A stretch of 64,000 nt of DNA, from positions 12,448 to 76,447 of the forward strand of contig JAFGPL010000007.1 in NCBI GenBank assembly GCA_016936215.1, given 5' to 3'. Source of the stretch: Bacteroidales bacterium. Lineage in GTDB: Bacteria; Bacteroidota; Bacteroidia; Bacteroidales; UBA10428. A program made the position numbers and the translations under genes. Numbering within the stretch: position 1 is the stretch's first letter; each line of letters begins with the position of its first letter. Of this stretch, positions 15,114 through 62,417 are shown one piece after another. The notes under the pieces were generated by a model, which ran no database searches, was not told the origin of the DNA, and was given only the letters and a program-made list of their open reading frames with translations.

Positions 15114-15127
15114 TAAAAACGTTTACA
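15114..15127. promoter_or_regulatory. candidate LacI-family operator (imperfect palindrome TAAAAACGTTTACA)
   Basis: It lies in the divergent GH2/LacI intergenic region and resembles the generic LacI/GalR operator TGnAAnCGnTTnCA, with a central CG. Confidence 0.35.
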
Positions 15128-15173: not shown

Positions 15174-16193
15174 ATGGCTTATGAAAACGATTACAAGGCG
15201 GTAAGCCTTTATGAGGTTGCTGATAAAGCAGGGGTTTCAAGTGCCACAGTATCAAGGGTTATTAATAATAGTCCCAATGTAAACCCTGAAACCCGCCTGA
15301 GGGTGCAGCAGGTGATAAAAGAACTGAGGTACACTCCCAACAGGGTTGCAAAAAGGCTGAGAAACAGAAATGCATCCAACAACCTGTTGGGAGTGCTTAT
15401 ACCGGATATTCAAAATCCATTTTATGTTGAAGTACTCAGGGGAATTGAAGATGTAGCCTATGAAAACAAATACGCGCTTATCGTTTGCAATTTTTCCCAG
15501 GATGAAAAAAAAGAAAAACTTTACCTGGATATTCTGTTATCTGAATCGGTTGACGGATTAATAGCTGCCCCCACACACGAGAACGACCAGAAGGTAATTA
15601 ACATAGTAAAAAGCGGCCTTCCGATCGTATGTGTTGACAGGGGGCTTACGGGTGTAGATGTAGACCTTGTGGTAGTTGAAAACCGCAACGGGGCCTATTC
15701 TGCAGTTGATTTTCTGGCAAAGCAGGGATATAAAAGAATTGCCTATATCTCAGGCTTACCGCAGTTACCATCAAGCAGACAGCGTGAGTCGGGATATAAG
15801 GATGCGCTTGCAGATAATGGCCTGGTTTTCGATGGTTCCCTTGTTAAATATGGTGATTCACGTCACGAAAGCGGGGTGAAACTGTCTGAAGAACTTTTAA
15901 ACCTCGAAAATCCTGCCGACGCGATTTTTACAGGAAACAACCTGATTACCCTTGGCGCTTTGGAGACCATTCACAAAAGAGGATTAAGGATACCAGATGA
16001 TGTCGCTATCATTGGTTTTGACGATATGTACTGGTCTATTTCATTAAATCCTCCACTTACAGCGGTGAGACAACCGGCTTACGAGATCGGAAAACGGTCC
16101 GCCGAACTGCTTATCCAGCGAATCACAGACCCGGCGCGCCCTACTGTAAGTATGACTTTAAAAACAGAATTGATGATCAGAAATTCATGCTGA
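15174..16193 (+). CDS. LacI-family transcriptional regulator
   Basis: N-terminal helix-turn-helix LYEVADKAGVSSATVSRVINN followed by a periplasmic-binding-protein-like sugar-binding fold. Length is 339 aa. Confidence 0.9.
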   Translation: MAYENDYKAVSLYEVADKAGVSSATVSRVINNSPNVNPETRLRVQQVIKELRYTPNRVAKRLRNRNASNNLLGVLIPDIQNPFYVEVLRGIEDVAYENKYALIVCNFSQDEKKEKLYLDILLSESVDGLIAAPTHENDQKVINIVKSGLPIVCVDRGLTGVDVDLVVVENRNGAYSAVDFLAKQGYKRIAYISGLPQLPSSRQRESGYKDALADNGLVFDGSLVKYGDSRHESGVKLSEELLNLENPADAIFTGNNLITLGALETIHKRGLRIPDDVAIIGFDDMYWSISLNPPLTAVRQPAYEIGKRSAELLIQRITDPARPTVSMTLKTELMIRNSC

Positions 16194-16209
16194 TAATTTA
16201 GAAACAGAT

Positions 16210-17364
16210 TTGTCAATTATGGACAGGATTATTTTCAATTACCCACGTCGTTTGGTCATCGGAGAAAACAGCCTGCAGCAGTTTGCCGCTGATTTTCAGT
16301 CTGAGGGTTTCCGTCGTTTGTTTATCCTGCTTATACCCGCGCTAATTGACAAACTTCAGCCCGTTATTACAGTTATCGGGCAAAATGGGATTGACATTAA
16401 AATATATACTTACACAAAAGAAGAACCTACTTTTGATGATTTTAATGATGTATTGAAAGATGCCCGTGCGTTTAAGGCCGACAGCATTGCCGGTATCGGG
16501 GGGGGCAGTGTCCTGGATGTGGCCAAACTTCTGGCTGCTATGCTTTATTCTTCTTTAAAGGCAGAAAATGTTGCGGGTAACGGTTTGATAACTGAAAGAA
16601 AGACCTTTCTCGCATGTATCCCTACCACCTCAGGCACCGGAAGTGAGGTTTCACCCAATGCGATCCTGCTTGACAGGAAAGATCAGTTAAAAAAAGGCAT
16701 CATCAGCCCTTTTCTGGTCCCGGACAATGTGTACATTGACCCGCTTTTAACCGTTAGCCTTTCTCCTTTAGTCACAGCCTTTACAGGTATAGATGCCCTG
16801 ACTCATTGTGTAGAGGCTTTTGCCAATCGCTATGCGCATCCGGTAACGGATACCCTGGCGCTTGAGGGTATTAAATTAATTTGCGCAAACCTGGTTAAAG
16901 CCGTGGAGAATGGCGGTGATCTTGAAGCGCGCTCAAACCTTGCACTGGCAAGTATGTATGGCGGGATGTGCCTTGGCCCTGTTAATACAGGGGCAGTGCA
17001 CGCACTCGCTTATCCGTTGGGCAGTATTTTTAAGGTCGCACATGGACTCTCGAATGCGCTTCTCTTGCCTTATGTGATGGAATACAACCTGTCTGCTGCA
17101 GTATCCAGGTATGCTGATATTGCCCGGGCAGCAGGGTCGGTAAACCCGGGAAACGAATCTGAGGTTGCTGGTGATGGCATCAGGATAATCAAAGAAATGA
17201 TCGAACGGTGCAGGTTACCTTTACACCTATCGGATGTAGGAATATCAGAAAATGATGTTGACAAAATGGCTGAGTCTGCAATCACCGTGCAGCGGCTATT
17301 AAAAAACAATGTAAAGGACTTAAACATACAGGATATTAAAGATATTTACCATAAAGCGCTTTGA
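16210..17364 (+). CDS. iron-containing (group III) alcohol dehydrogenase
   Basis: GIGGGSVLDVAK motif and a His cluster (HCVEAF, HALAYPLG...AHG). TTG at 16210 or ATG at 16219 could be the start. Confidence 0.85.
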   Translation: MSIMDRIIFNYPRRLVIGENSLQQFAADFQSEGFRRLFILLIPALIDKLQPVITVIGQNGIDIKIYTYTKEEPTFDDFNDVLKDARAFKADSIAGIGGGSVLDVAKLLAAMLYSSLKAENVAGNGLITERKTFLACIPTTSGTGSEVSPNAILLDRKDQLKKGIISPFLVPDNVYIDPLLTVSLSPLVTAFTGIDALTHCVEAFANRYAHPVTDTLALEGIKLICANLVKAVENGGDLEARSNLALASMYGGMCLGPVNTGAVHALAYPLGSIFKVAHGLSNALLLPYVMEYNLSAAVSRYADIARAAGSVNPGNESEVAGDGIRIIKEMIERCRLPLHLSDVGISENDVDKMAESAITVQRLLKNNVKDLNIQDIKDIYHKAL

Positions 17365-17368
17365 TAAG

Positions 17369-18298
17369 ATGACCGGAAAGCCAGATAAAAAGTATAAAGG
17401 TGTTATCGTTCCAATGGTTACACCGCTAACAGCAGAGGGTAAAATTGACAACGATGCAGTTGCTGCCATCATGCAGAAACTCTACGAAGCCGGCGCTCAT
17501 CCTTTTGTGCTTGGTACAACCGGCGAATCTGTCTCCGTGCCGGTTACCGAAAAATTGCAACTGGTCGGGGCGATTATGGATAATAAGATGAGCGGTATGA
17601 TTGTATTTGCAGGCATATCCGGTAATTCTCTTCAGGAATCCGTAGAGCAGGCCCGGTTATTTGCAGAAAGAGGTGTTGATGCAGTAGTGGCTCATCTGCC
17701 ATTTTACTTTCCGCTTTCCCCGGAACAGATGCTGAAGTATTTTCTGCATTTGGCCGCCAGGGTACCTTTACCGCTGATTATATATAATAATCCGATTACG
17801 GTTAAACAATCCATTCCCATAGATGTAGCCGAGCAATTAAGTTACCATAGCAATATTGCGGGCATGAAAGATTCAGAACGAGGCCTGGAACGTCTTGACA
17901 GATCGTTAAAGCTATGGAAATCAAGACCTGATTTTTCATTTCTTGTTGGCTGGAGTGCCCAGTCAGCTTATTCGATCCTGAATGGTGCAGACGGAATAGT
18001 ACCGGGTACCGGCAATTTCATGCCAAGGCTTTATAAGAATATATACGATGCGGCAATGCATGGTGACAGCACAAATGCATTTGAATACCAGGAAAAAGCC
18101 GATCGTATTTCAGATATTTATCTGAAGGATAAAAATATAAGTCAATCAATCCCTGCACTCAAATACCTGATGTCGCTTTCAGGCCTGTGTCAGCCGTATG
18201 TGCTTTCCCCGCTGGTCGAAGCTGATGATCGTGCAAAAAGTATCATCAGGGAAGAAGCAGAGAAGGTTCTGATATCAGAAAATATAGAATGGAAATAA
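17369..18298 (+). CDS. DapA / N-acetylneuraminate-lyase family class I aldolase (or dehydratase)
   Basis: GTTGES motif, IYNNP, and the Schiff-base lysine context NIAGMKDSE. Length is 309 aa. Confidence 0.85.
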   Translation: MTGKPDKKYKGVIVPMVTPLTAEGKIDNDAVAAIMQKLYEAGAHPFVLGTTGESVSVPVTEKLQLVGAIMDNKMSGMIVFAGISGNSLQESVEQARLFAERGVDAVVAHLPFYFPLSPEQMLKYFLHLAARVPLPLIIYNNPITVKQSIPIDVAEQLSYHSNIAGMKDSERGLERLDRSLKLWKSRPDFSFLVGWSAQSAYSILNGADGIVPGTGNFMPRLYKNIYDAAMHGDSTNAFEYQEKADRISDIYLKDKNISQSIPALKYLMSLSGLCQPYVLSPLVEADDRAKSIIREEAEKVLISENIEWK

Positions 18299-18302
18299 TT
18301 CA

Positions 18303-19364
18303 ATGAACGAGGAGAAAAAATACAGACCACTTCTTGCGGTAACGATGGGCGATCCTGCCGGGATAGGTCCGGAAATAGCTCTTAAAACGGTTCCTGACAA
18401 AAGAGTATTGGACATTAGCAGGCCCGTGCTTATTGCGAATGCTGAAATCATTAAAAACACAAAAGAAATGGTGGAACCGGGAACCAGGCTTCGTGTTATT
18501 GAAAAGATTAATGATGCTGATTTTCAGCCTGGTATAATTAATATCATTGACATACCCTCTCCCAATATTCAACAGGTAAGGCTGGGTGAAATATCAGCAG
18601 CAGCTGGTGATATTGCTTTCAGGGCTATCAAAACAGCTATTGACCTGGCTATGAATGGAGATGTGGACGGGACGGTTACAGGTCCGATCAACAAGGAGTC
18701 TATTAATCTTGCCGGTCATCATTTTTCAGGACATACCGAGATATATGCACATTATACCAAAAGTAAAAAGCCGGCAATGATGCTGGTAGATGATAACTTC
18801 AGGGTGGTTCATGTTACAACACATGTCTCTTTGAGGCAGGCATGCGATATGGTAAAGAGAGAGAGGGTACTGGATGTAATTCAGCTTGCATACCAGGAAA
18901 CCATAAAGCTCGGCATTGATCATCCGAGAATCGGTGTTGCCGGTTTAAATCCCCATGCCGGTGATGGCGGATTGTTTGGTGATGAAGAGATAAACGAGAT
19001 TCTTCCTGCCATTGAAGATGCCTGCAAAATGGGCATTCTGGCTGAAGGCCCGATACCGCCCGATTCGCTTTTTGCCCTTGCACGAGGAGGGAAATTTGAT
19101 GTGTGCGTGGCTATGTACCATGACCAGGGTCATATACCTTTTAAACTTTTGGGTTTTCAGTGGGATGAAATAAAAAACAGTATGAAAAGTGTGAAAGGGG
19201 TGAACGTGACCCTGGGTTTGCCGATAATACGTACCTCGGTTGACCATGGTACAGCATTTGAAATTGCAGGCAAGGGGATCGCAAGCCCCGATGCCCTGAT
19301 GAACGCGATTGAATACGCTGTAAAACTGTGTAAAAACAAAAGAATGAATGAGGAATTGAAATGA
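18303..19364 (+). CDS. PdxA-family NAD-dependent dehydrogenase (PdxA2-like, 4-phospho-tetronate dehydrogenase type)
   Basis: Motifs GDPAGIGPEI, GHTE, NPHAGDGG, HDQGH and TSVDHGTAF. Confidence 0.85.
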   Translation: MNEEKKYRPLLAVTMGDPAGIGPEIALKTVPDKRVLDISRPVLIANAEIIKNTKEMVEPGTRLRVIEKINDADFQPGIINIIDIPSPNIQQVRLGEISAAAGDIAFRAIKTAIDLAMNGDVDGTVTGPINKESINLAGHHFSGHTEIYAHYTKSKKPAMMLVDDNFRVVHVTTHVSLRQACDMVKRERVLDVIQLAYQETIKLGIDHPRIGVAGLNPHAGDGGLFGDEEINEILPAIEDACKMGILAEGPIPPDSLFALARGGKFDVCVAMYHDQGHIPFKLLGFQWDEIKNSMKSVKGVNVTLGLPIIRTSVDHGTAFEIAGKGIASPDALMNAIEYAVKLCKNKRMNEELK

Positions 19365-19411
19365 TGGAAGTATTTGACAATGATTTGCTATTTACCAAAT
19401 TACTAATGAGC

Positions 19412-19543
19412 TGATTTGATGATTTGAAGATTTGTAAATGGAGGTAAACCGGAAGTGTTGAAGAATAACAATAATACTGAAAGACAATATTCTTTTATGC
19501 TTTTGACAATTAGCCTTGAAACTTGTAACGTGAAACTTGTAAC
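19412..19543. repeat. two blocks of short direct oligonucleotide repeats in the pdxA-like/kinase spacer
   Basis: TGATTTGA TGATTTGA AGATTTG at 19412-19434 and TGAAACTTGTAAC G TGAAACTTGTAAC at 19517-19543. They resemble the repeat arms seen around the small cassettes elsewhere in the window. Confidence 0.5.
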
Positions 19544-19549
19544 TATAAA

Positions 19550-20731
19550 ATGATAGCTGTTATTGCAGATGATTTTACAGGAGCGGCCGAGATAGGTGGA
19601 ATAGGAATCCGGCATGGGCTTAAGGTTGTGATTGAGACAAAATCAATACAGCACAGCGATGCCGATTTGCTGGTAATTGCTACCGATACCCGCTCATTGA
19701 ATGCGCTGCAGGCTTCAGAGGTTATGAGTGAAGTAACCAGAAAAATCCTCAAATTGAAACCGTCTTTTATTTATAAAAAACTCGATTCGGTGCTGCGGGG
19801 GAATATTTCTGCTGAATTATCTGCCCAGATGCAGGTTACCGGTAAAAAGCGATCGGTTATCGTAGCAGCCAATCCGGCGCTCAGGCGCATAATCCGCGAA
19901 GGTGTTTATTACATTGACGATATTCCCCTTGAAAAAACCAACTTCTCGAAAGACCCTGAATACCCTGTTTATTCATCTTCTGTTAAAGAGATTGTAGGTG
20001 GAAGCAACTTGTTTACTTGTCTTTCACCCCAAAGCAATTTACCGGTTAAGGGATTAATCCTTGGTGACGTTACCGGCCAGGATGACCTGAAAAACTGGGC
20101 ATCATGTATTGACGATTCCACCTTACCGGCCGGGGCTTCGGGCTTTTTCGATGCGTTGCTCATAAACAGACATATAACCGGAATCGAGGATTATTCATGT
20201 CCGGAAGAATTCGGAGAAAGAATCCTGTATATACTTGGAAGTGCATATCAAAAAAATGAACAGCAGCTTAAGACCATTGAATCAAGTGGATATGTGTTAT
20301 CAAACATGCCGGTGGAGATTTATTTCAACAAAGATTTTAATCCTGCTCTTCTTGACAAATGGGTGGATGAAATAGTGCTTGGCATCAAAAACAAAAGAAA
20401 AGTAGTTGTTTCGGTCACGCATTTTTCGAATGCCGAACCAATGCTTTCGCAAAGAATAAAAGAAAATATTGGCGTACTGGTTAAGAAAGTTGTAGGAAAG
20501 ATAGATTTAAATGAATTAATTATTGAAGGGGGAAGCACCACTTCGGTAGTGCTTAACTATTTGAATATAAATAAACTATTCCCGATTCAGGAACTTGACA
20601 CCGGGGTCATAAGAATGAAAACTGAAGAAAAAAAAGGCACTTATATTACAACCAAACCGGGAAGCTATACATGGCCGGATATTCTTTGGATGAGACAGGA
20701 TCACCGTAAATTAAACAACATAACACTATAA
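19550..20731 (+). CDS. four-carbon acid-sugar kinase family protein (DUF1537)
   Basis: The N-terminal IADDFTGA motif and two-domain length (393 aa) are typical of the DUF1537 / YgbK family. Confidence 0.85.
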   Translation: MIAVIADDFTGAAEIGGIGIRHGLKVVIETKSIQHSDADLLVIATDTRSLNALQASEVMSEVTRKILKLKPSFIYKKLDSVLRGNISAELSAQMQVTGKKRSVIVAANPALRRIIREGVYYIDDIPLEKTNFSKDPEYPVYSSSVKEIVGGSNLFTCLSPQSNLPVKGLILGDVTGQDDLKNWASCIDDSTLPAGASGFFDALLINRHITGIEDYSCPEEFGERILYILGSAYQKNEQQLKTIESSGYVLSNMPVEIYFNKDFNPALLDKWVDEIVLGIKNKRKVVVSVTHFSNAEPMLSQRIKENIGVLVKKVVGKIDLNELIIEGGSTTSVVLNYLNINKLFPIQELDTGVIRMKTEEKKGTYITTKPGSYTWPDILWMRQDHRKLNNITL

Positions 20732-20742
20732 ACCAAAATTTC

Positions 20743-22299
20743 ATGGCAGGGCTTAAGGTACATATTATTGATTTCATTATCATCATAGGTTCGCTGATTG
20801 TTCCTTTTTTCATAAGTCTTAAACTATCGGGAAAACAAAATAACCTGAGTAAATATTTCACAGCCGGTGGAAAGTTACCCTCCTGGGCCATTGGTATCTC
20901 AATTCTTGCCACCCTTATCAGTAGTGTTACGTTTCTGGCATATCCGGGCGAAGGGTTTTCATCCAACTGGATTTTGCTTGTACAGGGATTAATGGTACCG
21001 GTTACTTTGATACTCATCATTGGGTTTGTTGTTCCCCTTTACCGAAAAGCCATAAAAATAAGCGCATACGAGTATTTTGAGAAGCGGTTCGGGTTTTTTG
21101 CCCGGCTGTATAGTTCACTGGGGTTTTTCCTGGCTCATTTTTCAAAGATGGGTACGGTATTTTTCCTGATTGCCCTCGCGTTTTCAAAAATGGCAGGGTT
21201 CAATACATCCGAAATGATCTGGATAATTGGTATAATCGTCATATTCATCACCCTTCTGGGAGGTATAGAAGCAGTAGTCTGGCTCGATGTTTTCCAGGGA
21301 TTTCTTCTCGTTGGCGGGGGCATTGCGTCCTTGTTGATTATAATTGCATCCACCAATGGAGGGATAGGAACCATATGGGACATTGCTGTTGAAAATGGCA
21401 AAACAGGTTTTGGACCTTATGATATAAGCTTTACAAAACTCACCTTTTTGGTTATGGTATTGAATGGTATATTTTACGCTATACAAAAATACGGAACCGA
21501 TCAAACAATTATACAGCGCTACCTTGCTGCCAAATCCGATAAAGCCGCTGTTAAGGCTTCTTTGATGGGAGTGCTTCTGAGTGTTCCGGTATGGGCTTTA
21601 TTTATGTTTATCGGCACAGCCCTGTTCGCTTATTACCATGTTAACCCGGCTGAATTACCGGAAGGTATAAGGCCCGATGCTGTTTTTCCACAATTTATTA
21701 TGACAAAACTGCCGGTAGGGGTGGTCGGGCTTGTGCTTGCAGCCCTGCTTGCAGCAGCAATATCAAGCCTCGACTCCGACCTGAATTGCCTGTCAGCCAT
21801 ATGTGTGGAAGATTATTATATAAGGTTTAAACCCTCAAGTACCGAGAAACAGCGTATGTTTTTCAGCCGCCTGATTGTAATACTTGCTGGCTTTGCTTCT
21901 ATATTCATTGCCTTGTATTATACAAAAATAGGGGGAGAAGGGGTACTGGGGATTATATTTACCTTGTATTCAATCTTTTCAGGGGGAATTGCAGGTATGT
22001 TCCTGCTTGGAATCTTTACCAAAAGGGCCAACAAACAGGGTTTATATGTCGGCATTGCTGCAAGCGTTTTGTTTACAGCATATGCCGTACTTACTTCCAC
22101 GAAATTTGAAATAGGTGAAAAATCGGTATTGTTACTTGATTTTGGTAACTTTAACTTTACACATCATAAAATGATGCTGGGAGTATACAGCCATGTTGTT
22201 CTTTTCGTGGTTGCATATTTTGCCAGTTTTTTGTTTAAAAATAAACAGGGTACAGATGCACTGACCTATTATGGATGGAAAAAGAAGATGGCTGTGTAA
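20743..22299 (+). CDS. sodium:solute symporter (SSS family)
   Basis: 518 aa with about 13 transmembrane segments and the SSS-like pattern GGKLPSWAIGISILATLISSVTFLAYPG. Confidence 0.85.
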   Translation: MAGLKVHIIDFIIIIGSLIVPFFISLKLSGKQNNLSKYFTAGGKLPSWAIGISILATLISSVTFLAYPGEGFSSNWILLVQGLMVPVTLILIIGFVVPLYRKAIKISAYEYFEKRFGFFARLYSSLGFFLAHFSKMGTVFFLIALAFSKMAGFNTSEMIWIIGIIVIFITLLGGIEAVVWLDVFQGFLLVGGGIASLLIIIASTNGGIGTIWDIAVENGKTGFGPYDISFTKLTFLVMVLNGIFYAIQKYGTDQTIIQRYLAAKSDKAAVKASLMGVLLSVPVWALFMFIGTALFAYYHVNPAELPEGIRPDAVFPQFIMTKLPVGVVGLVLAALLAAAISSLDSDLNCLSAICVEDYYIRFKPSSTEKQRMFFSRLIVILAGFASIFIALYYTKIGGEGVLGIIFTLYSIFSGGIAGMFLLGIFTKRANKQGLYVGIAASVLFTAYAVLTSTKFEIGEKSVLLLDFGNFNFTHHKMMLGVYSHVVLFVVAYFASFLFKNKQGTDALTYYGWKKKMAV

Positions 22300-22385: not shown

Positions 22386-25300
22386 ATGAAACACTTTTAT
22401 CTGATGATTGCCCTGGTTGTATTGACTGCCGGAATGTCTTTTTCCCAGGTGAGGGTAACCGGACAGGTAAGAAACAGCGCCGGAGAGACACTTCCCGGGG
22501 TGAATGTGGTGATAAAAGGCACCAACACGGGGGCTATTACCGATATTGACGGCAAATATGTGGTGGAAGGTGTACCTGCCGACGGCATCCTGATTTTTTC
22601 TTTTGTGGGGATGCTTACAGAGGAGATAAGTGTGGGAAACCAGACCGTGATAAACATTACCCTGGTTGAAGATGTTACAACACTCGACGAAGTGGTGGTG
22701 GTAGGCTATGGAAGTGTGAAGAGGGCAAACCTTGCCGGTTCAGTAAGCGATATTAGCGCCAAAGAGTTAATAGATATCCCGTCTGTAAACCTCTCAAGCG
22801 CCCTTGAAGGAAGGTTGGCCGGGGTAAGGATCAATATTGCATCGGGTAAACCAGGTGCCTCAACATCTCTGCAGATACGTGAATCAAGTTCTTTTGGACT
22901 TATTGCAGAACCGCCCATTTATGTTATTGACGGAATAATCAGGGACCAGGAAGCATTCGATATTCTTGACCCCAGCGAGGTGGAAGCCATTTCAGTATTG
23001 AAAGATGCCTCCGCGGCAGTGTATGGTGCAAAATCGGCAGGAGGCGTGGTGCTTGTGACGACAAAAAAGGGAAAGGAAGGAAAGGTTAAGGTGAACTACA
23101 GTAGTAGTTTTGGTATAACAGAACCTATCAATATCACTGAAATGCTTTCTGCATATGAGCATGCAACCATGCTAAATGACAAATATGACATCCTTGAACA
23201 AAAAGGTGATAAATTTACCCAAAGCGAGCTTGACTATATACTGGATTCTTTACCAAATGGTGGTTATGACTGGTTGGACGGCGCCTGGAAAAACGCTACG
23301 GTTCAGCGTCATAACCTCAATTTCAGCGGAGGTTCAGAAAAGATCAGGTATTTTGTCGGGGGTAGTTATCTCGAGGAAACCGGAAATATTGAACGGGTAT
23401 ACATCAGAAAATATACGATTCGCAGTAATATTGAAGCTGAAATTTCAAAAGGGCTTACTGCAAACTTTGAAGTCAGTCTCGGAAACAGGACCGACGGTAG
23501 TCCGGTAAGCCCCTGGGACGGACAAAGCGACCTGCTTGAAGAAACATTCAGGCAACTGTTACAAAATCCCAAATGGATTCCCCCGACCATAGATGGAAAT
23601 CCTGTTTATCATCCTAACATATTACCAAGAAATCCTTATGCGGTTTGGGAAAGCGAAAGCTATAATAAAGGTGAGTCGAACAGTGCAAGTTATGTTGCTT
23701 CTTTGAATTATAAAATACCTTTCATCAAAGGTTTAAGCGCTAAAATGCAGATCAGCCAGACAAGAAATTCCGGATACGGAAAAAAATATGAACCGAAAAT
23801 ATATGCAGCCAATTACACTGCTACCAAAAATATTATTAAAGTGACATCACCATTGGATTCTGTTTCACCGGTAATTGCGATTACCAATGCACAGGAACTG
23901 GAAGAAAGCTCCGAAAGATCATATTCCTACCAGGTTAATGCCCATATTTCATATAACCGTACATTCGGAAAGCATGAAGTTAGCGGTCTGATTGTTGGAG
24001 AAGTCGGAGAAAGCAGGGGTAACAGGGTTGGCTGGAAAAGGGAAGGAGAGCAGGTGATTCCTGGTTATGACCTTTACTGGGCTTTTAGCGAGCAGGATGT
24101 TCTCCTGGCCACGAATGTTTCTGATCATGGAAGCATGGGTTATGTGGGAAGGTTGAATTATAATTATGGTTCAAAATATATTGCTGAATTTGCCTTCCGT
24201 TATGAATCTTCGACCAAATTTGCTCCCGATGAACGATGGGGGTTCTTTCCCTCCGTATTGGTTGGTTGGGTAGTCTCCGAAGAGAAGTTTTTTAAGAAAT
24301 TACTACCTGTAATCAATTTTATGAAATTCAGGGGATCTGCCGGACTACTCGGTAATGATGCCATTGGTGACTATACCTGGATGCTTGTTTATGGTCCTGT
24401 TGAGAAGCGTACATTTCTTTTTGGGGAGCAACCGGTAATCACACTTGAGCCTAAAAATGCTGCTTTCGTAAATCCTGGTGTTTCCTGGCAAAAAACCCAA
24501 TTTTATAACGGGGGCGTGGATATGCGGTTTTTTAACAACAAACTTGTTTTTACCGGTGATGCATTTTACAAGTATACCTATGATATCATGGCTTCCATCG
24601 CAACCCGTATTCCTACAACAGTAGGTGTCCCTTCCAATAGCAAAGTCGGGTTCAATTACGGGATAATGCATGCATACGGGTTTGAGCTTGAACTTGAACA
24701 CAGGAACAAATTCCCGTTTGGTATTGAATACAATATAAGTGGAAATTTTGCTTATGCAGAAGCCAGAAAGCTTAAAGTAGCACAATCACCAGGCGCTATC
24801 GGAACCTGGCATGATGAGCTTAAGACATCAGTAGACAACCAACCCGGGGCAATAAGTACCGGAATGGTTAGAACACAGGAAGAGCTTGATGATATTTTAA
24901 TGGATAATCCGAATTTTTCAATAGAGTCTGAACAACTTCAATTAGGAATGTTGAATTACCTTGATATCAGGGGAAGTGACGGTTCTGAAGGGCCCAACGG
25001 ACGGTTTAATTTCGACCAGGAAGAGGACCGCACAGTAATTGCAAGGAAAACCAGTCCACCTTTTATTTATGGTGTTTCCTTCGGCTTGCAATGGAAAGGG
25101 ATTAAAGTTGATATGACTTTTAGCGGTAAATTCGGGCATGAGGTGTTTTATGACAAAAAATCATTGGCAGTTCCTACAAACTCAAATAATGTACCTGCGT
25201 TCTGGGCTGATCACTGGACACCCGATAATCCCGATGCAGCTTTCCCCCGGGCCACAGATTATGGTCTTGTCGGGAATTACTCTACTTTCTGGAAGCGCGA

Positions 25301-25517
25301 CGGACACAGTCTCAGGCTTACCGACCTGAATGTTTCATACGCATTGCCGTCCAAATGGGGGCAACTCTTTGGGATTGAGCAACTCAGGGTATTCTTTAAT
25401 ACAAAATATCTATGGACGCTCGTTAACCCCTTTGATTATAAAGATGCTAATTTGTCAGAATACAATACTTATCCGATGACGAGGTCTTATAATTTTGGTG
25501 TAAATATCAATTTATAG
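22386..25517 (+). CDS. susC: SusC/RagA-family TonB-dependent outer-membrane transporter
   Basis: 1043 aa. Signal peptide, carboxypeptidase-regulatory-like domain (VTGQVRNSAGETLPGVNVVIKGT), plug domain, and a terminal aromatic beta-barrel signature (YNFGVNINL). Confidence 0.95.
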   Translation: MKHFYLMIALVVLTAGMSFSQVRVTGQVRNSAGETLPGVNVVIKGTNTGAITDIDGKYVVEGVPADGILIFSFVGMLTEEISVGNQTVINITLVEDVTTLDEVVVVGYGSVKRANLAGSVSDISAKELIDIPSVNLSSALEGRLAGVRINIASGKPGASTSLQIRESSSFGLIAEPPIYVIDGIIRDQEAFDILDPSEVEAISVLKDASAAVYGAKSAGGVVLVTTKKGKEGKVKVNYSSSFGITEPINITEMLSAYEHATMLNDKYDILEQKGDKFTQSELDYILDSLPNGGYDWLDGAWKNATVQRHNLNFSGGSEKIRYFVGGSYLEETGNIERVYIRKYTIRSNIEAEISKGLTANFEVSLGNRTDGSPVSPWDGQSDLLEETFRQLLQNPKWIPPTIDGNPVYHPNILPRNPYAVWESESYNKGESNSASYVASLNYKIPFIKGLSAKMQISQTRNSGYGKKYEPKIYAANYTATKNIIKVTSPLDSVSPVIAITNAQELEESSERSYSYQVNAHISYNRTFGKHEVSGLIVGEVGESRGNRVGWKREGEQVIPGYDLYWAFSEQDVLLATNVSDHGSMGYVGRLNYNYGSKYIAEFAFRYESSTKFAPDERWGFFPSVLVGWVVSEEKFFKKLLPVINFMKFRGSAGLLGNDAIGDYTWMLVYGPVEKRTFLFGEQPVITLEPKNAAFVNPGVSWQKTQFYNGGVDMRFFNNKLVFTGDAFYKYTYDIMASIATRIPTTVGVPSNSKVGFNYGIMHAYGFELELEHRNKFPFGIEYNISGNFAYAEARKLKVAQSPGAIGTWHDELKTSVDNQPGAISTGMVRTQEELDDILMDNPNFSIESEQLQLGMLNYLDIRGSDGSEGPNGRFNFDQEEDRTVIARKTSPPFIYGVSFGLQWKGIKVDMTFSGKFGHEVFYDKKSLAVPTNSNNVPAFWADHWTPDNPDAAFPRATDYGLVGNYSTFWKRDGHSLRLTDLNVSYALPSKWGQLFGIEQLRVFFNTKYLWTLVNPFDYKDANLSEYNTYPMTRSYNFGVNINL

Positions 25518-34488: not shown

Positions 34489-34491
34489 ATA

Positions 34492-39069: not shown

Positions 39070-39085
39070 TAGAAATAGTCAAACC

Positions 39086-46079: not shown

Positions 46080-46631
46080 ATATTGGATAAAGCCCTGAAT
46101 TAAAGATTAAAAATATATAATTTGAATGTCATATAAGGATTTTACTGAAATGTCAGTCTGGCAAAAGGCATTTAAACTTTTGCTTAGAATTTATGATTTA
46201 ACCAAAAAATTTCCAAAGGAAGAAAAATATGGAATTATAGATAATACCAGAAGGGCTGCTAATTCTGTTACAAACAATATTGCTGAAGGCTTTGGAAGGT
46301 ATGAAAAATATGATAAAACACGGTTTTATAAAATATCCAGGGGAAGTGCATATGAGATAGTTAATCAGATAATGGTTTCTCATGCCTTAAGTTATATTAA
46401 CAATTTAGAAAATGAAGAATTGATCAAAAGTTACAAAGAAGTTATCGAAGAACTAGATATGATGATTAAATCCCTGGAAACATCAGACAGAAAACGAACC
46501 AGATATTAAAATAGTCTAAATCATGAAAATTATCAGGAGAATTTTAAATCTTTTTATAATATTTTTTCAATATTCTCAGAATAATATCCGTCATCTTAGC
46601 CTCAGCCTTAGCCTCAGCCTTAGCCTTAACC
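46047..46631. other. cassette A: a four-helix-bundle gene bracketed by inverted hexamer-repeat arms
   Basis: The left arm (AAGGCT)x3 GAGG at 46047-46068 and the right arm (CTTAGC/CTCAGC)x6 at 46595-46630 are reverse complements of each other. Confidence 0.7.
46126..46509 (+). CDS. four-helix-bundle protein (23S rRNA intervening-sequence protein family)
   Basis: 127 aa. The pattern VWQKAFKLLLRIYDLTKKFPKEEKYGIIDNTRRAANSVTNNIAEGFGRY...SRGSAYE is the hallmark of this family. Confidence 0.85.
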   Translation: MSYKDFTEMSVWQKAFKLLLRIYDLTKKFPKEEKYGIIDNTRRAANSVTNNIAEGFGRYEKYDKTRFYKISRGSAYEIVNQIMVSHALSYINNLENEELIKSYKEVIEELDMMIKSLETSDRKRTRY

Positions 46632-48424
46632 TAATATCTCACGCTCAGGATACAATCATATATACCGGCAGAGCACTTTCCAACCCCGATTTCCACCACG
46701 GCCAGCTTGCACCTGTCATTGGTGTTCATAACATTCAGGTGCTGCGGGCAAACCGTGAGTACCCTGCCGAAGCCGAAGACTTTGGCTGGACATACAACCA
46801 TGCCCCCATGCTGGCATACTGGAATAACACATTCTGGCTTGAATACCTAAGCGATTCGGTGGGCGAACATATTCCTCCCGGACAAACATTGCTTACAAGC
46901 TCTGAAGATGGTTACAACTGGTCAAAACCATTGGTAATATTTCCCAGGTACCGCATACCGGATGGAACCACAAAACCAGGCAAAAAACAGGTAGCAGAGA
47001 ACCTTTATGCCGTGATGCACCAGCGTATGGGTTTTTATGTTTCAAAAGATAACCGGATGCTGGCGCTGGGATACTATGGTATCTGCCTGCCTGGAAAAGA
47101 TTCACCCAACGATGGGCATGGTATCGGGCGTGTTGTCAGGGAAATATATTCTGACGGAAGTTTTGGACCGGTTTATTTCATACGTTACAATGCCTCATGG
47201 AATGAAAAAAATACATCATACCCATACTATAACTCGAGCAAAGACAAAGGATTTAAAAACGCCTGTAACGAACTGCTTTCCAGCCCATTGATGATGATGC
47301 AATGGGTGGAAGAAGCCGATCGCGATGATCCACTTATCCCTTTAAAGAAACAATATAAGGCTTTTAGTTATTATCATTTGCCAGATGGCAGGGTAGTGGG
47401 TTTATGGAAACATGCCCTCACCTCTGTGAGCCGTGATGATGGAAAAACCTGGGATTACCCGGCTGTCAGGGCACCGGGCTTCGTGAATGCCAATGCCAAG
47501 ATATGGGGACAAAGGACAACAGACGACCGGTATGTTACTGTTTACAATCCCTCTGTGTTTCGCTGGCCGCTTGCGCTTTCAGTCAGTGATGACGGTCTTG
47601 AATACAATAACCTGCTGCTTGTGCAGGGCGAAATCTCAACAACCCGCTATGGTGGCGACTACAAGAACTACGGACCCCAATATGTCAGGGGTATCCTTGA
47701 AGGAAATGGTACTCCATCTGATTCAAACCTATGGATTACATACAGCATGAACAAAGAGGATATATGGATAGCCAAAGTACCTGTACCCGTAAAAAGCATT
47801 GTTGAAGATGATGTTGATGAGATTTTTACTGAAATGGCAGAAGGCAAAGAACTTCTGAACTGGAATATTCATAGTCCGCTCTGGGCACCGGTGAAAATTG
47901 AAAAGCTGTCTGACGGGGGTAAAGCATTATCGCTTTGCGACCACGACAGGTATGAATATGCAAAGGCTGAACGGATATTTTCATCTTCTGAAAAAGGGGT
48001 TGTTGAGTTTACATTAATTGCGGCACAGGACAACAGGGGCACCCTGCATGTTGAACTTCAGGATGAAAAGGGTTCTGATGCCATCAGACTTGTGTTCGAT
48101 TCGCTTGGAAATTGCAGCATCAAAGATGGTTATCGTTATTCCGGAGTTTTTCATTACAAACAGGGTGAGGAATATAAAATCGCTATTTCATATGATTCAA
48201 AAACAAGATTTTACAGGGTGAATGTCAATGGTGATGAGAAAAAACTGGCTATGTTTTTTACCCCTGTTAAATCACTTCAGCGTATTGTGTTTCGCACCGG
48301 TGAACCACGACGGTACCCTGATACCGAATCGCCGGCTGTGCACGAAGAAGATTTACCTTTAGCCGGTATACCGGATGAGAAAGCAGTTTTTTATATTAAA
48401 ACTTTAAAAACAACCAGAAAATAA
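46523..48424 (+). CDS. Asp-box (BNR)-containing beta-propeller protein, sialidase-fold-like
   Basis: Asp-box-like motifs SSEDGYNWS, SRDDGKTWD and SVSDDGLEY. The N-terminal signal region includes SLSLSLSLSL, encoded by the cassette A right arm. Confidence 0.55.
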   Translation: MKIIRRILNLFIIFFQYSQNNIRHLSLSLSLSLSLNLISHAQDTIIYTGRALSNPDFHHGQLAPVIGVHNIQVLRANREYPAEAEDFGWTYNHAPMLAYWNNTFWLEYLSDSVGEHIPPGQTLLTSSEDGYNWSKPLVIFPRYRIPDGTTKPGKKQVAENLYAVMHQRMGFYVSKDNRMLALGYYGICLPGKDSPNDGHGIGRVVREIYSDGSFGPVYFIRYNASWNEKNTSYPYYNSSKDKGFKNACNELLSSPLMMMQWVEEADRDDPLIPLKKQYKAFSYYHLPDGRVVGLWKHALTSVSRDDGKTWDYPAVRAPGFVNANAKIWGQRTTDDRYVTVYNPSVFRWPLALSVSDDGLEYNNLLLVQGEISTTRYGGDYKNYGPQYVRGILEGNGTPSDSNLWITYSMNKEDIWIAKVPVPVKSIVEDDVDEIFTEMAEGKELLNWNIHSPLWAPVKIEKLSDGGKALSLCDHDRYEYAKAERIFSSSEKGVVEFTLIAAQDNRGTLHVELQDEKGSDAIRLVFDSLGNCSIKDGYRYSGVFHYKQGEEYKIAISYDSKTRFYRVNVNGDEKKLAMFFTPVKSLQRIVFRTGEPRRYPDTESPAVHEEDLPLAGIPDEKAVFYIKTLKTTRK

Positions 48425-48584
48425 AAATATTGAATGTATGGATCAAAATCCTGTGTATTTAAATTCCAATATTGAACCGGGTAGGCTCAGCGATATTATT
48501 GTCATCCTGAACGATAGTGAAGGATCTCAGACTTTAGACCGGCATTTTTTGTCCCCTGAAATCAGGATTGCCTATAAACCATCA

Positions 48585-50144
48585 ATGAGAACGAAAAGTG
48601 CTATTGTAATATTTTCCGTTATAGTATTTGCTCTTTTCGTTACAGGATGCGCTATTCAGAAACCCTTGAAAAATGATCCTACCTCTGTTCTAAAACCTGA
48701 GTACTTCAAACATTATGTTGACTATTTTAACCGTATGGAAGATGAGAATATTATTCAGGCCATTCCCAATGACAGCGCCTGGGAGTGGATGAAAACCAAT
48801 ATACCATTGTTTGAATGTCCGCAGGATAATTTTGAAGAGATATATTACTACCGCTGGTGGAGTTTCAGAAAACATATTAAGGAAACACCCCAGGGGCCAA
48901 CAATTACGGAGTTTCTCGTACAGCGTTCATATGCCGATAAATACAACATGATTGCCTGTGCCATAGGGCACCATATTTACGAAGCCCGTTGGCTGCACGA
49001 TACCAGGTTTCTTGATAATTACATTCATCTCTGGTACAGGGGGAATGACGGACAACCCATGAAGAAACTGAATAAATTTAGTAGCTGGACTGCGTATGCA
49101 TTGTATAACAGGTATCTGGTTGATGCCGACACAACTTTTCTGCTCAATATGTTACCCGATATGGTGAAGGATTACAGTGTCTGGGAAAAAGATCGCCGGC
49201 ACCCAATCGGGCTCTTCTGGCAACACGATGTAAAAGATGGCATGGAGGAATCAATAAGCGGTGGCCGCAGGGTTGAAAACCACCGTCCCACCATCAACAG
49301 TTATATGTTCGGCAATGCCGTTGCTATCTCCGAAATGGCGGCCATGAAAGGTGATTTGGAATTATCCGGTATATTCAGGCTAAAGGCCGATACAATTAAA
49401 AACCTATTACAATCGAAACTGTGGAACCCCGGTCATCATTTTTTTGAAACGCTGATGCATAATGATACCCTTGCAAATGTAAGAGAGGCTATTGGCTTTA
49501 TCCCCTGGTACTTTAATCTTCCTGACAATGGTTTTGAACATGCATGGGAACAGGTACGTGATCCTGAAGGTTTTCTTGCCCCTTTTGGCCTCACTACTGC
49601 AGAACGCCGCCATCCGGCTTTTCGAACCCGTGGCTGTTGCAGTTGTGAATGGGACGGTGCTGTCTGGCCTTTTGCCACATCACAGACACATACTGCCATG
49701 GCAAATCTTTTAAATAATTACAACCAGTCGGTGGTGAATGATTCGGTTTATTTCAGGTTGCTTGAACTCTACGTTGAGTCACAGTATTACAGGGGCAGGC
49801 CTTATATTGGTGAGTACCTCGATGAAAAAACCGGTTACTGGCTCAAGGGCGACCAGGAACGCAGCCGCTATTACAACCATTCCACATTCAACGATCTGGT
49901 AATTACCGGTCTGGTTGGTTTGCGTCCCCGGGCCGATAATGTAATAGAGGTTAATCCGCTTGTACCGGAAAACAGATGGGAGTGGTTTTGCCTTGACAAT
50001 ATCCCTTATCACGGCAACGTGCTTACAATTTTCTGGGATAAAAACGGAACAAGGTATAACCGTGGAAAAGGATTTCATATTCTTGTTGACGGAAAAGAAG
50101 TAGCTGTTTCAGATACGCTTGAAAAAATTCTGGTGAAATATTAA
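48585..50144 (+). CDS. (alpha/alpha)6-barrel glycoside hydrolase-like protein (GH63/MGH1-like or related)
   Basis: ATG 48585 gives the lipoprotein signal MRTKSAIVIFSVIVFALFVTGC. Motifs WDGAVWPFATSQT and YRWWSFRKH are typical of trehalase/GH63-like barrels. The exact family is uncertain. Confidence 0.55.
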   Translation: MRTKSAIVIFSVIVFALFVTGCAIQKPLKNDPTSVLKPEYFKHYVDYFNRMEDENIIQAIPNDSAWEWMKTNIPLFECPQDNFEEIYYYRWWSFRKHIKETPQGPTITEFLVQRSYADKYNMIACAIGHHIYEARWLHDTRFLDNYIHLWYRGNDGQPMKKLNKFSSWTAYALYNRYLVDADTTFLLNMLPDMVKDYSVWEKDRRHPIGLFWQHDVKDGMEESISGGRRVENHRPTINSYMFGNAVAISEMAAMKGDLELSGIFRLKADTIKNLLQSKLWNPGHHFFETLMHNDTLANVREAIGFIPWYFNLPDNGFEHAWEQVRDPEGFLAPFGLTTAERRHPAFRTRGCCSCEWDGAVWPFATSQTHTAMANLLNNYNQSVVNDSVYFRLLELYVESQYYRGRPYIGEYLDEKTGYWLKGDQERSRYYNHSTFNDLVITGLVGLRPRADNVIEVNPLVPENRWEWFCLDNIPYHGNVLTIFWDKNGTRYNRGKGFHILVDGKEVAVSDTLEKILVKY

Positions 50145-54010: not shown

Positions 54011-54484
54011 CCACCAAATCACGAAAACACTAAATAACACCAAAATGATAAAAAAGAGTTTTGCACCAATTCCGGCAGAATTAGACAAAATAGGAAGAAA
54101 AATAGTAGATGCCGCATATATAATACACAAGAATCTGGGTCCCGGGCTTTTAGAAAAAGTATATGAATTGTGTTTTTGTCATGAGTTAACTAAACGAGGG
54201 CTTACTTATCAAAGACAAAAAGATATACCAATTATTTATGATGGACTTCAGTTTGATGAAGGATTGAGATTGGATGTTTTAGTAGAGGAGCAGGTAATTT
54301 GTGAATTAAAAGCCCTTGAAAATGTAAATCCGGTTTGGGAGGCTCAAGTTCTAAGTCATTTAAAATTAACAAATAAGAGATTGGGTTATCTAATAAATTT
54401 TAATGTGGTTAACATTGGTCATGGTATCAAGAGATTTGTGCTTTAATTTTAGTGTATTATTTTGTGATTTGGAGCTTTGGTGGC
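54010..54484. other. cassette B: a GxxExxY gene bracketed by imperfect inverted repeat arms
   Basis: The left arm GCCACCAAATCACGAAAACACTAAATAACAC (54010-54040) starts at the last base of the upstream stop codon. The right arm AGTGTATTATTTTGTGATTTGGAGCTTTGGTGGC (54451-54484) is its imperfect reverse complement. Confidence 0.6.
54045..54446 (+). CDS. GxxExxY protein (PD-(D/E)XK nuclease-like superfamily)
   Basis: The pattern IVDAAYIIHKNLGPGLLEKVYELCFCHELTKRGL...IYDG...RLDVLVEEQVICELKA...QVLSHLKLTNKRLGYLINF is the family hallmark. Confidence 0.85.
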   Translation: MIKKSFAPIPAELDKIGRKIVDAAYIIHKNLGPGLLEKVYELCFCHELTKRGLTYQRQKDIPIIYDGLQFDEGLRLDVLVEEQVICELKALENVNPVWEAQVLSHLKLTNKRLGYLINFNVVNIGHGIKRFVL

Positions 54485-62400: not shown

Positions 62401-62417
62401 TTGTTGTGGTTGCGCCC

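Follow-up and report, generated by a model that had tools for sequence, protein, structure and literature searches.

Which sugar is handled by the six-gene operon that lies just 5' of the SusC/SusD genes in a polysaccharide locus of a Bacteroidales bacterium? The window analysed here is a stretch of 64,000 nucleotides. The locus 3' of the operon is an RG-II degradation locus and encodes both halves of BT1020, whose target, according to the literature and reportedly Ndeh et al. 2017, is side chain D of RG-II (Araf-Dha). With a probability of about 0.6, on comparative and chemical grounds, we propose that the operon takes up Dha, a rare plant acid-sugar of RG-II, and breaks it down to pyruvate, DHAP and CO2. 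The initial annotation had favored this sugar and knew of no described Dha catabolic pathway; we also found none in the searchable literature, and we regard the operon as a well-supported lead for a new pathway variant.

The operon and the surrounding RG-II locus

Open reading frames were found at the coordinates first given for the six co-directional genes (15174-22299), Pfam bore out the family named for each (Table 1), and the motifs that had been quoted for them (GGGSVLDVAK, GTTGES, NIAGMKDSE, GDPAGIGPEI, NPHAGDGG, HDQGH and ADDFTGA) are all present in the translations. Gaps between the first four genes, previously put at 4-16 nt, measure 16, 4 and 4 nt; 185 nt separate the PdxA-like and kinase genes, 11 nt the kinase and symporter genes, and 86 nt the symporter gene and SusC.

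Table 1. Positions of the operon, candidate operators and RG-II locus within the window
Feature	Position	Strand	Remarks
Candidate LacI operator 1, TAAAAACGTTTACA	15114..15127		Near-palindrome 5' of regulator gene
LacI-family repressor	15174..16193	+	Pfam LacI HTH and Peripla_BP (periplasmic-binding-protein) domains
Candidate LacI operator 2, TGAAAACGATTACA	15182..15195		Overlaps first codons of regulator
Group III iron-dependent alcohol dehydrogenase (ADH)	16210..17364	+	Pfam Fe-ADH and ADH_Fe_C
DHDPS/NAL-family class I pyruvate aldolase	17369..18298	+	Pfam DHDPS, E 3e-46
PdxA2-like NAD-dependent decarboxylating dehydrogenase	18303..19364	+	Pfam PdxA, E 5e-105
DUF1537 (four-carbon acid-sugar) kinase	19550..20731	+	Pfam SBD_N and NBD_C (DUF1537 architecture)
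Sodium:solute symporter (SSS)	20743..22299	+	Pfam SSF
SusC-like TonB-dependent transporter	22386-25517	+	Pfam
SusD-like protein	25528-27393	+	Pfam
Pectinesterase	33001-34488	+	
Three pectate-lyase-like paralogues	34492-36231, 37387-39069, 39038-40774	+	
DUF6298 protein	40798-43671	+	
GH140 apiosidase	43685-45073	+	
GH143-type hydrolase, N-terminal half of BT1020	46523..48424	+	Pfam BT_1020-like beta-propeller; 5mqr residues 22-610, E 1e-218
GH142-type beta-L-arabinofuranosidase, C-terminal half of BT1020	48438..50144	+	5mqr residues 616-1102, E 5e-231
GH78 rhamnosidase	50155-52953	+	
Sialidase-like BNR_2 protein	52925-54010	+	
Esterase-like protein	54504-55895	+	
GH141	57058-58944	+	
DUF3826 protein	59399-60232	+	
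GH137-like protein	60605-61720	+	

The depolymerising set (GH143 plus GH142, GH140, GH141, GH137-like, GH78, pectate lyase, pectinesterase and SusC/D) resembles that of the RG-II loci of Bacteroides thetaiotaomicron. The present locus differs in that BT1020 is split into two genes and in that it also carries a module for a monosaccharide in the cytoplasm, complete with a LacI repressor.

The LacI-family protein, which passed none of the NCBIfam equivalog cut-offs, probably represses its own operon; the two sites at its gene are candidate operators. In 46 of 80 related loci the module begins with a LacI orthologue. Sites of the TGnAAACGTTTACA type occur 5' of the lacI orthologue or at its start in 32 of 45 loci and form a perfect palindrome in Flavobacterium, and several orthologous loci have a second operator-like site about 68 nt past the first.

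Conservation of the module

The 80 related loci used for comparison come from three phyla and encode kinases 39-80% identical to that of the operon. They belong to Bacteroidales, Prolixibacteraceae, Marinilabiliaceae, Cyclobacteriaceae, Flavobacterium, Spirosomataceae, Ignavibacteria-type genomes and one Thermoguttaceae (Planctomycete) genome. Across them the genes are closely packed and keep the order ADH, aldolase (77 loci), PdxA-like dehydrogenase (78), kinase and symporter (75); since this order persists among kinases of such low identity, the arrangement is not due to chance. The ADH is encoded in 67 loci. In some others there was room for it and it is missing from the operon: in one (L004) the aldolase gene directly follows lacI, in two (L025 and L039) a gene for a secreted protein fills the slot between these genes, and in a fourth (L026) such a gene lies immediately 5' of the aldolase gene, close to the contig end.

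Of the 66 loci in which the flanks span 8 kb or more, 50 have pectin or RG-II genes homologous to those of the window near the module. Strictly RG-II-type glycosidases are present in 19 of the 66, often right after the symporter gene in the series GH140-GH43-GH143-GH142. In L066 the genes SusC-SusD-GH143 stand immediately 5' of the module, and L078 and L080 are loci that contain sulfatases; homologues of the GH140 apiosidase or pectate lyases were not found within 10 kb in these three, yet a GH143-like gene still adjoins the module in each. Loci of Flavobacterium and of the Ignavibacteria-type genomes have the module on its own, pectin genes being absent within 10 kb.

A proposed route from Dha to pyruvate and DHAP

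Because the module contains no dehydratase, sugar dehydrogenase or lactonase, the imported compound must already be a 2-keto-3-deoxy acid, and by chemical derivation Dha is the only RG-II sugar of this kind that would leave a 4-carbon acid. We take GH143 enzymes to release Dha from side chain D of RG-II and GH142 enzymes to uncap it there; the GH143 and GH142 proteins of the same locus would free Dha in the periplasm. The SiaT-like Na+ symporter would take it up, the aldolase would cut it between C3 and C4 to give pyruvate and 2,3-dihydroxy-4-oxobutanoate (D-threo), and the iron-dependent ADH would reduce this aldehyde to D-threonate with NAD(P)H. Phosphorylation by the DUF1537 kinase would yield 4-phospho-D-threonate, which the PdxA2-like enzyme would oxidise and decarboxylate to DHAP and CO2. 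The net reaction, Dha + ATP to pyruvate + DHAP + CO2 + ADP, would be redox-neutral and fits an anaerobe. That cleavage and reduction of Dha should give D-threonate had been derived earlier; an independent Fischer derivation, checked against the known relation of Kdo to D-arabinose plus pyruvate, agrees. For every step we infer the substrate; protein families, gene order, conservation and genomic company are observed.

By far the best solved relative of the symporter is the sialic-acid transporter SiaT (5nv9, E 5e-78). The symporter orthologues all keep the carboxylate-binding Ser60 and Thr63 of SiaT; at the position of Arg135, 68 of 73 have Lys, and at that of Gln250 Lys is invariant. The residues round the N-acetyl and glycerol groups in SiaT (Phe78, Gln82, Phe243, Asn247 and Gln250) are replaced in the operon symporter, which we propose to be an inner-membrane importer of Dha. 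The logic resembles that of sialic acid catabolism by SiaT or NanT and the NanA lyase, in which a free 2-keto-3-deoxy ulosonic acid is imported and pyruvate is then split off by a class I aldolase of the DHDPS/NAL family. Here, however, the aldolase fails the NanA models, and the steps that follow would act on a 4-carbon acid instead of ManNAc.

The aldolase, proposed from its motifs and company to be a Dha lyase forming pyruvate and the 4-carbon uronate, scored below every cut-off of the DapA, NanA, KDG-aldolase and KdgD models. All 77 orthologues retain its GTTGE and YN.P motifs and the Schiff-base Lys in G.KDSE, and at what we take to be the position of Arg138 of DHDPS it has no Arg. It may accept Kdo as well. 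The metal-ligand and GGGS motifs of the ADH are kept across 64 orthologues, and its conserved Met is codon 4 (ATG at 16219). It passed none of the curated equivalog models; the nearest, all below cut-off, are aldehyde reductases (lactaldehyde, sulfoacetaldehyde and 4-hydroxybutyrate dehydrogenases). In fold and metal site it is like the aldehyde-acid reductases of its family (4-hydroxybutyrate dehydrogenase/succinate-semialdehyde reductase, FucO), and the proposed reaction, in which the omega-aldehyde of a short hydroxy-acid is reduced, would be the dihydroxy analogue of the conversion of succinate semialdehyde to 4-hydroxybutyrate.

For the last two steps the literature offers a D-threonate pair, DtnK and PdxA2. 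This pairing of a DUF1537 kinase with PdxA2 is reportedly due to Zhang et al. 2016, PNAS 113:E4161. The operon likewise has adjacent genes for such a kinase and a PdxA-family decarboxylating dehydrogenase, with DHAP as predicted end product. Unlike that pair, they form part of a longer conserved operon that also encodes the pyruvate aldolase, Fe-ADH and SiaT-like symporter, so that D-threonate would be an internal intermediate rather than a nutrient, and they lie in Bacteroidota polysaccharide loci, not in proteobacterial acid-sugar clusters. The best solved relatives of the PdxA-like protein are 6e85, a 'D-threonate 4-phosphate dehydrogenase' (E 7e-89, 47% identity), and 2hi1; E. coli PdxA is much more distant (E 7e-57). 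It shares essentially all active-site motifs with the solved phospho-tetronate dehydrogenases and scored 348 bits with the D-threonate-4-P dehydrogenase model, below the cut-off of 583. The kinase, a putative D-threonate 4-kinase, aligns to characterised DUF1537 structures in the PDB in its N-terminal domain only. It scored 135.7 bits with the DtnK model, far below the cut-off of 450, and 68.6 bits with the OtnK (3-oxo-tetronate kinase) model, also below cut-off; DtnK outscored OtnK in all 18 members of the kinase clade tested. The RG-II locus with its BT1020 halves, the synteny and the PdxA2-like, DtnK-like and SiaT-like similarities together argue for the Dha hypothesis of the initial annotation.

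Other substrates and reaction orders

The module might instead be composite, with the aldolase (and ADH) cleaving Kdo or another 2-keto-3-deoxy acid while the kinase and PdxA2-like enzyme separately use D-threonate or D-erythronate of other origin, the halves being merely co-regulated. Kdo is likewise an RG-II sugar released by the same kind of locus, it could be the main substrate of the aldolase, and the locus has a sialidase-like BNR_2 gene. YagE-type keto-deoxy-acid aldolases are among the solved relatives of the aldolase, and pairs of an aldolase and a FucO-like reductase occur in non-phosphorylative deoxy-sugar routes. The module, however, encodes no enzyme for the D-arabinose that Kdo cleavage would give, and we know of no RG-II sugar other than Dha that yields a tetronate. 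The four enzymes and a single transporter, which suggests a single substrate, stay together in fixed order in 67-78 of the 80 loci, and the constant neighbour is GH143-like (17 loci) rather than BNR_2 (6 loci). We consider two independent halves unlikely.

Dha could also be degraded in another order. The PdxA-like enzyme would act on unphosphorylated Dha, oxidising the C5 hydroxyl with loss of C7 as CO2, to form 2,5-diketo-3-deoxygluconate; the ADH would reduce this to KDG, the DUF1537 kinase would form KDPG, and a DHDPS-type KD(P)G aldolase would release pyruvate and GAP. This scheme would use all four enzymes and be redox-neutral. Some PdxA-family members (ApnO and TphB, the latter among the solved relatives found here) take unphosphorylated substrates, a clade-specific conserved 11-residue insertion after LLGF, next to an active-site motif, could reshape the pocket of the PdxA-like protein, and DHDPS-family members include the archaeal KD(P)G aldolases (124.7 bits for the operon aldolase). 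The near-complete set of phospho-tetronate dehydrogenase motifs nevertheless speaks against it, as do the DUF1537 kinases, whose only known substrates are 4-carbon or branched 5-carbon acids; this clade fits DtnK best. Pectin degraders moreover already have KduD, KdgK and Eda for KDG chemistry, which the kinase and aldolase of a conserved module would duplicate. This order seems quite improbable.

A pathway of the apionate type, with D-apiose or a different branched acid (aceric acid, for example) as its substrate, would pair a PdxA-family oxidoisomerase with a DUF1537 3-oxo-acid kinase. D-apionate pathways with ApnO, OiaK and RuBisCO-like proteins, reportedly described by Carter et al. 2018, are to our knowledge the only earlier account of catabolism of an RG-II-specific sugar, and use of PdxA-family and DUF1537 enzymes is common to them and the present module. 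Apiose is an RG-II sugar, and the GH140 apiosidase of the locus has counterparts adjoining the module in 17 loci. Yet a scan of 36 open reading frames in the window revealed no RuBisCO-like protein, the conserved module contains none of the other proteins of that pathway, such as the sugar dehydrogenase and lactonase, and it has an aldolase and ADH instead; a pyruvate-type aldolase has no place in apionate chemistry, yet 77 of the 80 loci encode one. The PdxA-family protein is PdxA2-like, the kinase fits DtnK better than the 3-oxo-tetronate model, and the module persists in L066, L078 and L080, where homologues of GH140 are absent within 10 kb. The initial annotation had named an apionate-type pathway as an alternative; these points weigh against it, and we find it very improbable.

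Housekeeping vitamin B6 genes, a PdxA and a 4-hydroxythreonine-recycling DUF1537 kinase (such kinases are described in the literature) brought into a sugar operon by chance, are barely credible: the PdxA-like protein does score above the cut-off of the generic pdxA model, TIGR00557 (348.5 bits; cut-off 290), and would therefore be labelled PdxA by automatic annotation, but in 80 loci these genes are found within polysaccharide utilization loci, in LacI-headed operons that also encode a transporter, an aldolase and an ADH, and the protein is nearer to PdxA2 than to PdxA.

Layout and conservation of the module

The six genes of the module lie on the plus strand where the initial annotation had placed them, with SusC/SusD directly downstream among the window ORFs. 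Pfam and NCBIfam assign them to the families it had named, that is, LacI, group III Fe-ADH (here ADH), DHDPS/NAL aldolase, PdxA, SBD_N+NBD_C (the DUF1537 kinase) and SSS (the symporter), and all of the motifs that it quoted were recovered in the window translations. From LacI through SusC the intergenic gaps are 16, 4, 4, 185, 11 and 86 nt. Unusually, the PdxA-like gene is separated from the kinase gene by a spacer of 185 nt, where other loci have almost none; at its end, just 5' of the kinase start, a 12-nt sequence is directly repeated in tandem, GAAACTTGTAAC gt GAAACTTGTAAC.

Aligned kinase homologues were used to scan genomes for related loci, and the ORFs of the best 80 of 515 loci were compared with the window proteins by BLAST. 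In these best 80 of 515, homologues were found of the PdxA-like protein in 78, the aldolase in 77, the symporter in 75, the Fe-ADH in 67 and LacI in 46. The gene order in the 80 loci is always (LacI)-ADH-Ald-PdxA-Kin-SSS, on a single strand and tightly packed. The hosts of the best 80 of 515 are Bacteroidales MAGs, Prolixibacteraceae, Marinilabiliaceae, Cyclobacteriaceae, Flavobacterium, Spirosomataceae, Sphingobacteriales, Ignavibacteria-type genomes and one Thermoguttaceae MAG; cultured carriers include Flavobacterium seoulense, F. daejeonense, Maribellus sediminis, Draconibacterium aestuarii and Gaoshiqia sediminis.

The lacI orthologue is preceded by a TGnAAACGTTTACA-type palindrome in 32 of 45 loci, and the window has two copies at the head of the operon and no convincing copy elsewhere. 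This distribution points to a self-contained, repressor-controlled operon for a monosaccharide. When the operon was scanned for promoters and terminators, promoter-like sites were about as frequent as expected by chance (20 versus 19.1) and terminator-like sites fell inside genes.

Positions of the module genes and other features in the window
Feature	Positions	Remarks
Six-gene module	15174-22299	
ADH gene	16210-17364	
ADH start region	16210-16221	ORF opens with TTG at 16210; orthologue-conserved Met is codon 4, ATG at 16219
Aldolase gene	17369-18298	
PdxA-like gene	18303-19364	
Spacer, PdxA-like/kinase	19365-19549	
Direct repeat, first copy	19518-19529	
Direct repeat, second copy	19532-19543	
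Kinase gene	19550-20731	
Symporter gene	20743-22299	
Pectinesterase and first pectate-lyase-like protein	33001-36231	C-terminal sorting domains
DUF6298 protein	40798-43671	957 aa
BT1020 N-terminal counterpart	46523-48424	Matches 5mqr residues 22-610, E 1e-218
BT1020 C-terminal counterpart	48438-50144	Matches 5mqr residues 616-1102, E 5e-231
PD-(D/E)XK nuclease-family ORF	53991-54446	20-nt overlap with end of BNR_2 gene
Xylose-isomerase-like TIM-barrel protein	55955-56875	
Asp/Glu-racemase-family gene and MFS transporter gene	61732-63659	

Predicted activities of the module proteins

The window kinase is 100% identical to JXB00_00390 and has the two-domain architecture of its family (PF07005, E 1e-35, and PF17042, E 1.5e-9, by Pfam), and its N-terminal motifs DDFTGA and KK.DS.LRG are invariant across the clade. 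No solved DUF1537 protein is close to it, and the matches that these proteins give are confined to its N-terminal domain. With 135.7 bits it does not reach the 450-bit cut-off of the curated D-threonate kinase equivalog, NF047819, and it lies below both NCBIfam cut-offs, for D-threonate kinase and for 3-oxo-tetronate kinase; for 18 of 18 clade kinases tested, NF047819 is the best model, ahead of the 3-oxo-tetronate kinase model. The kinase is a candidate for the ATP-dependent phosphorylation of D-threonate at O4.

In 78 of the 80 loci the kinase gene is adjoined by the gene for the PdxA-like protein, in which the PdxA fold is confirmed by Pfam (E 5e-105). Among solved structures this protein is closest to 6e85, 'D-threonate 4-phosphate dehydrogenase' (E 7e-89, 47% identity), and to Salmonella PdxA2 2hi1 (E 1e-88), with E. 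coli PdxA 1ps6 far behind (E 7e-57). The metal-binding histidine motifs GHTE, NPHAG and HDQGH, together with RTSxDHGTA, are identical to those of 6e85 and 2hi1 and conserved in 78 orthologues. The protein is nearer to characterised PdxA2 than to biosynthetic PdxA and has every active-site motif in common with PdxA2. Its score of 348.3 bits misses the NF002891 cut-off of 583 and it passes the generic TIGR00557 only; a conserved 11-residue insertion follows LLGF.

The aldolase belongs to the DHDPS family (PF00701, E 3e-46), and the carboxylate-binding G50-T-T-G-E, the tyrosine Y129 of YN.P and the Schiff-base lysine K157, which aligns with the lysine of 4xky, are invariant in 77 orthologues. It was rejected as DapA (TIGR00674, 138.6 bits against a cut-off of 206) and as NanA (PRK04147, 113 against 281; TIGR00683, 84 against 382), and it also fails the KD(P)G-aldolase and KdgD models of NCBIfam. 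The DapA motif is YNVPxRT, and Arg138 of the E. coli enzyme binds aspartate semialdehyde; the window protein lacks this arginine, since it reads YNNPITV at the same position. Its closest solved relative, 4xky (E 5e-44), is deposited as dihydrodipicolinate synthase and reads YNMPTHTK where DapA has YNVPxRT, and thus may be a mis-named sugar-acid aldolase.

Metal and nucleotide motifs are kept in the ADH, which resembles aldehyde reductases and matched no equivalog model. From the orthologue alignment, its true start is probably the ATG rather than the TTG that opens the ORF. The gene is missing from a few operons, so the reduction may occur elsewhere or may not be obligatory.

The nearest solved relative of the symporter is SiaT, a sialic acid transporter (E 5e-78; next best 5.5e-45), and the SiaT residues compared here were taken from PMC5931594. 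The SSS fold is kept, and the carboxylate-binding Ser60 and Thr63 of SiaT are invariant in 73 symporter orthologues, whereas the Neu5Ac-specific contacts Gln82, Phe78, Phe243, Asn247 and Gln250, which surround the N-acetyl and glycerol groups, are replaced. This combination argues for an acid-binding relative of SiaT that is not a sialic acid transporter, and fits an acidic 2-keto-3-deoxy sugar other than sialic acid as the predicted substrate. Arg135 of SiaT is Lys in 68 of the 73 orthologues, and Gln250 is replaced by an invariant Lys; one may speculate that this extra lysine binds a second carboxylate.

A putative route for Dha and its alternatives

The depolymerisation of rhamnogalacturonan-II (RG-II) by Bacteroidota has been mapped in detail. 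To our knowledge, little has been described of the intracellular fate of its rare acid sugars, with routes established for apiose alone. RG-II has been called the most complex of plant polysaccharides, and the rare-sugar catabolism covered in the same account, from a leading group, is that of apiose enzymes only (2026 RG-II preprint). No catabolic pathway for 3-deoxy-D-lyxo-heptulosarate (Dha), a sugar of RG-II side chain D, was found in open-access PMC/bioRxiv full texts to mid-2026, and in the same full texts no paper contained 'heptulosar' and 'threonate' together.

Since the module has no dehydratase, sugar dehydrogenase or lactonase, whatever is imported would be expected to be a 2-keto-3-deoxy acid from the outset. 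Such acids among the RG-II sugars are Kdo and Dha. Cleavage of Dha (C4 and C5 OH left, C6 OH right) would yield pyruvate and a 4-carbon uronate, and reduction of the uronate aldehyde would give, when renumbered from the carboxylate, C2 OH left and C3 OH right, that is, D-threonate, the substrate of the DtnK/PdxA2 pair, which would convert it to DHAP and CO2. All four enzymes and the transporter would be used, at a cost of one ATP, and the route would be redox-neutral because the NADH equivalent made by PdxA2 would be consumed by the ADH. The stereochemistry had been worked out in the initial annotation; an independent derivation agrees, and the method, when checked on Kdo, correctly gave D-arabinose.

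We put at about 0.55 the probability that the operon encodes the first Dha catabolic route; in that case the Dha pyruvate-lyase, the 4-carbon uronate reductase and the Bacteroidota-type D-threonate kinase would be three new enzyme specificities, alongside a Dha:Na+ symporter. The route, for a sugar without described catabolism, would be put together from enzyme families and a terminal pair that are already known. It is unlikely that the module is instead a composite of a Kdo-lyase and an unrelated tetronate module; the D-arabinose from Kdo would be unusable by the module, and the source of the tetronate would be unexplained. Rather less likely is a route in which the PdxA-like enzyme acts first, on unphosphorylated Dha, to give 2,5-diketo-3-deoxygluconate and then KDG, which is chemically neat but conflicts with the PdxA2-like active site, as judged from motif identity with PdxA2 alone, and with the DtnK-like kinase, and would duplicate KduD, KdgK and Eda. 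The initial annotation had offered an apionate-type pathway (ApnO-OiaK-RLP) as an alternative, and this we consider very improbable: Pfam detected no RuBisCO-like protein, apiose dehydrogenase or lactonase family among the 36 window ORFs scanned, in the 80 loci none of the corresponding genes (RuBisCO-like, dehydrogenase, lactonase) belongs to the conserved module, and the aldolase would have no use. A vitamin B6 role for the PdxA-like/kinase pair is mismatched to both operon and locus context and is scarcely credible.

Other chemistries were weighed and rejected. For the DHDPS-family enzyme to act on Dha as a KdgD-type dehydratase/decarboxylase, the distal carboxylate would have to be one carbon closer, and its scores with the KdgD models are 48-66 bits. 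An aceric acid route by reduction, phosphorylation and oxidative decarboxylation ends in a DHAP-type aldolase, whereas that of the module is of the pyruvate type, and Dahms-type or fuconate-type routes call for the dehydratase, dehydrogenase and lactonase that the module does not have.

A complete and redox-neutral route that brings Dha to central metabolites in four steps would fill one rare-sugar gap and correct the names of genes that now carry the annotations PdxA, 'dihydrodipicolinate synthase' or 'four-carbon acid sugar kinase'. It would also provide a genomic marker for Dha users among the Bacteroidota of gut, soil and sediment, and the aldolase, in reverse, could serve to synthesise Dha, a compound that is difficult to come by.

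The RG-II locus and the genomic company of the module

SusC/SusD occur in the window together with the GH140, GH141, GH143, GH142 and GH137 families, which makes this an RG-II polysaccharide utilization locus. Downstream of the module are a pectinesterase, three pectate-lyase-like paralogues, a DUF6298 protein, a GH140 apiosidase, a GH43-like protein, a GH78 rhamnosidase, a sialidase-like BNR_2 protein, GH141 and a GH137-like protein; a divergent GH2 lies upstream. BT1020 of B. thetaiotaomicron, a two-domain protein of 1108 aa, is reportedly GH143 plus GH142, and its halves are two separate adjacent genes in the window. BT1020 degrades RG-II side chain D, L-Araf-beta1,5-D-Dha (2026 RG-II preprint). 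With both halves present, the machinery for freeing Dha is encoded in the same locus as the module.

Flanks of 8 kb or more are available for 66 loci; among these, homologues of window pectin/RG-II genes are found in 50 and strictly RG-II-type glycosidases in 19, often as SSS-GH140-GH43-GH143-GH142; the 10 kb flank limit makes these figures underestimates, the window GH143 itself being about 26 kb from the kinase. A module kept mainly in genomes without pectin loci, which the initial annotation had named as counting against its reading, is not what local context shows. In an Arcticibacter locus (L066) the order is SusC-SusD-GH143-LacI-ADH-Ald-PdxA-Kin-SSS. Two further loci, L078 (1-21152) and L080 (1-21167), have the module with sulfatases, BNR_2 sialidase-like proteins, a metallophosphoesterase, a cupin and an FAA hydrolase; a divergent GH143-like gene (38-39% identical) adjoins the module in both, and neither has a GH140 apiosidase or pectate lyase homologue within 10 kb of it. 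These three loci argue that the constant companion of the module is the Dha-hydrolase family rather than the apiosidase or pectin backbone enzymes, and the last two suggest a sulfated, possibly algal, glycan with a Dha-like or Kdo-like acid as their target. If the Dha route is correct, GH143-like company in sulfatase-containing, non-pectin loci would imply that Dha-like ulosaric acids are harvested from further glycans too, perhaps algal ones. In Flavobacterium and Ignavibacteria-type loci the module stands alone, pectin genes being absent within 10 kb.

The sorting domains of the pectinesterase and the first pectate-lyase-like protein are of the type IX secretion class, so that depolymerisation is probably in part extracellular, which differs from the B. 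thetaiotaomicron model. The DUF6298 domain (E 7e-240) is C-terminal, and the first approximately 475 residues of the protein have no Pfam match; a structure-database search found no solved relatives. The protein is conserved beside the module in 11 loci and probably represents an RG-II glycosidase that is uncharacterised or unmodelled.

The locus ends with the racemase-family gene and, after it, the gene of an anion-sugar MFS transporter from the D-galactonate transporter subfamily; with these two a second acid-sugar module (for Kdo or aceric acid?) may begin, which is cut off by the window end. The TIM-barrel protein inside the RG-II locus has weak matches to L-ribulose-5-P 3-epimerase models and is a candidate rare-sugar isomerase. 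The nuclease-family ORF lies within the glycosidase cluster.
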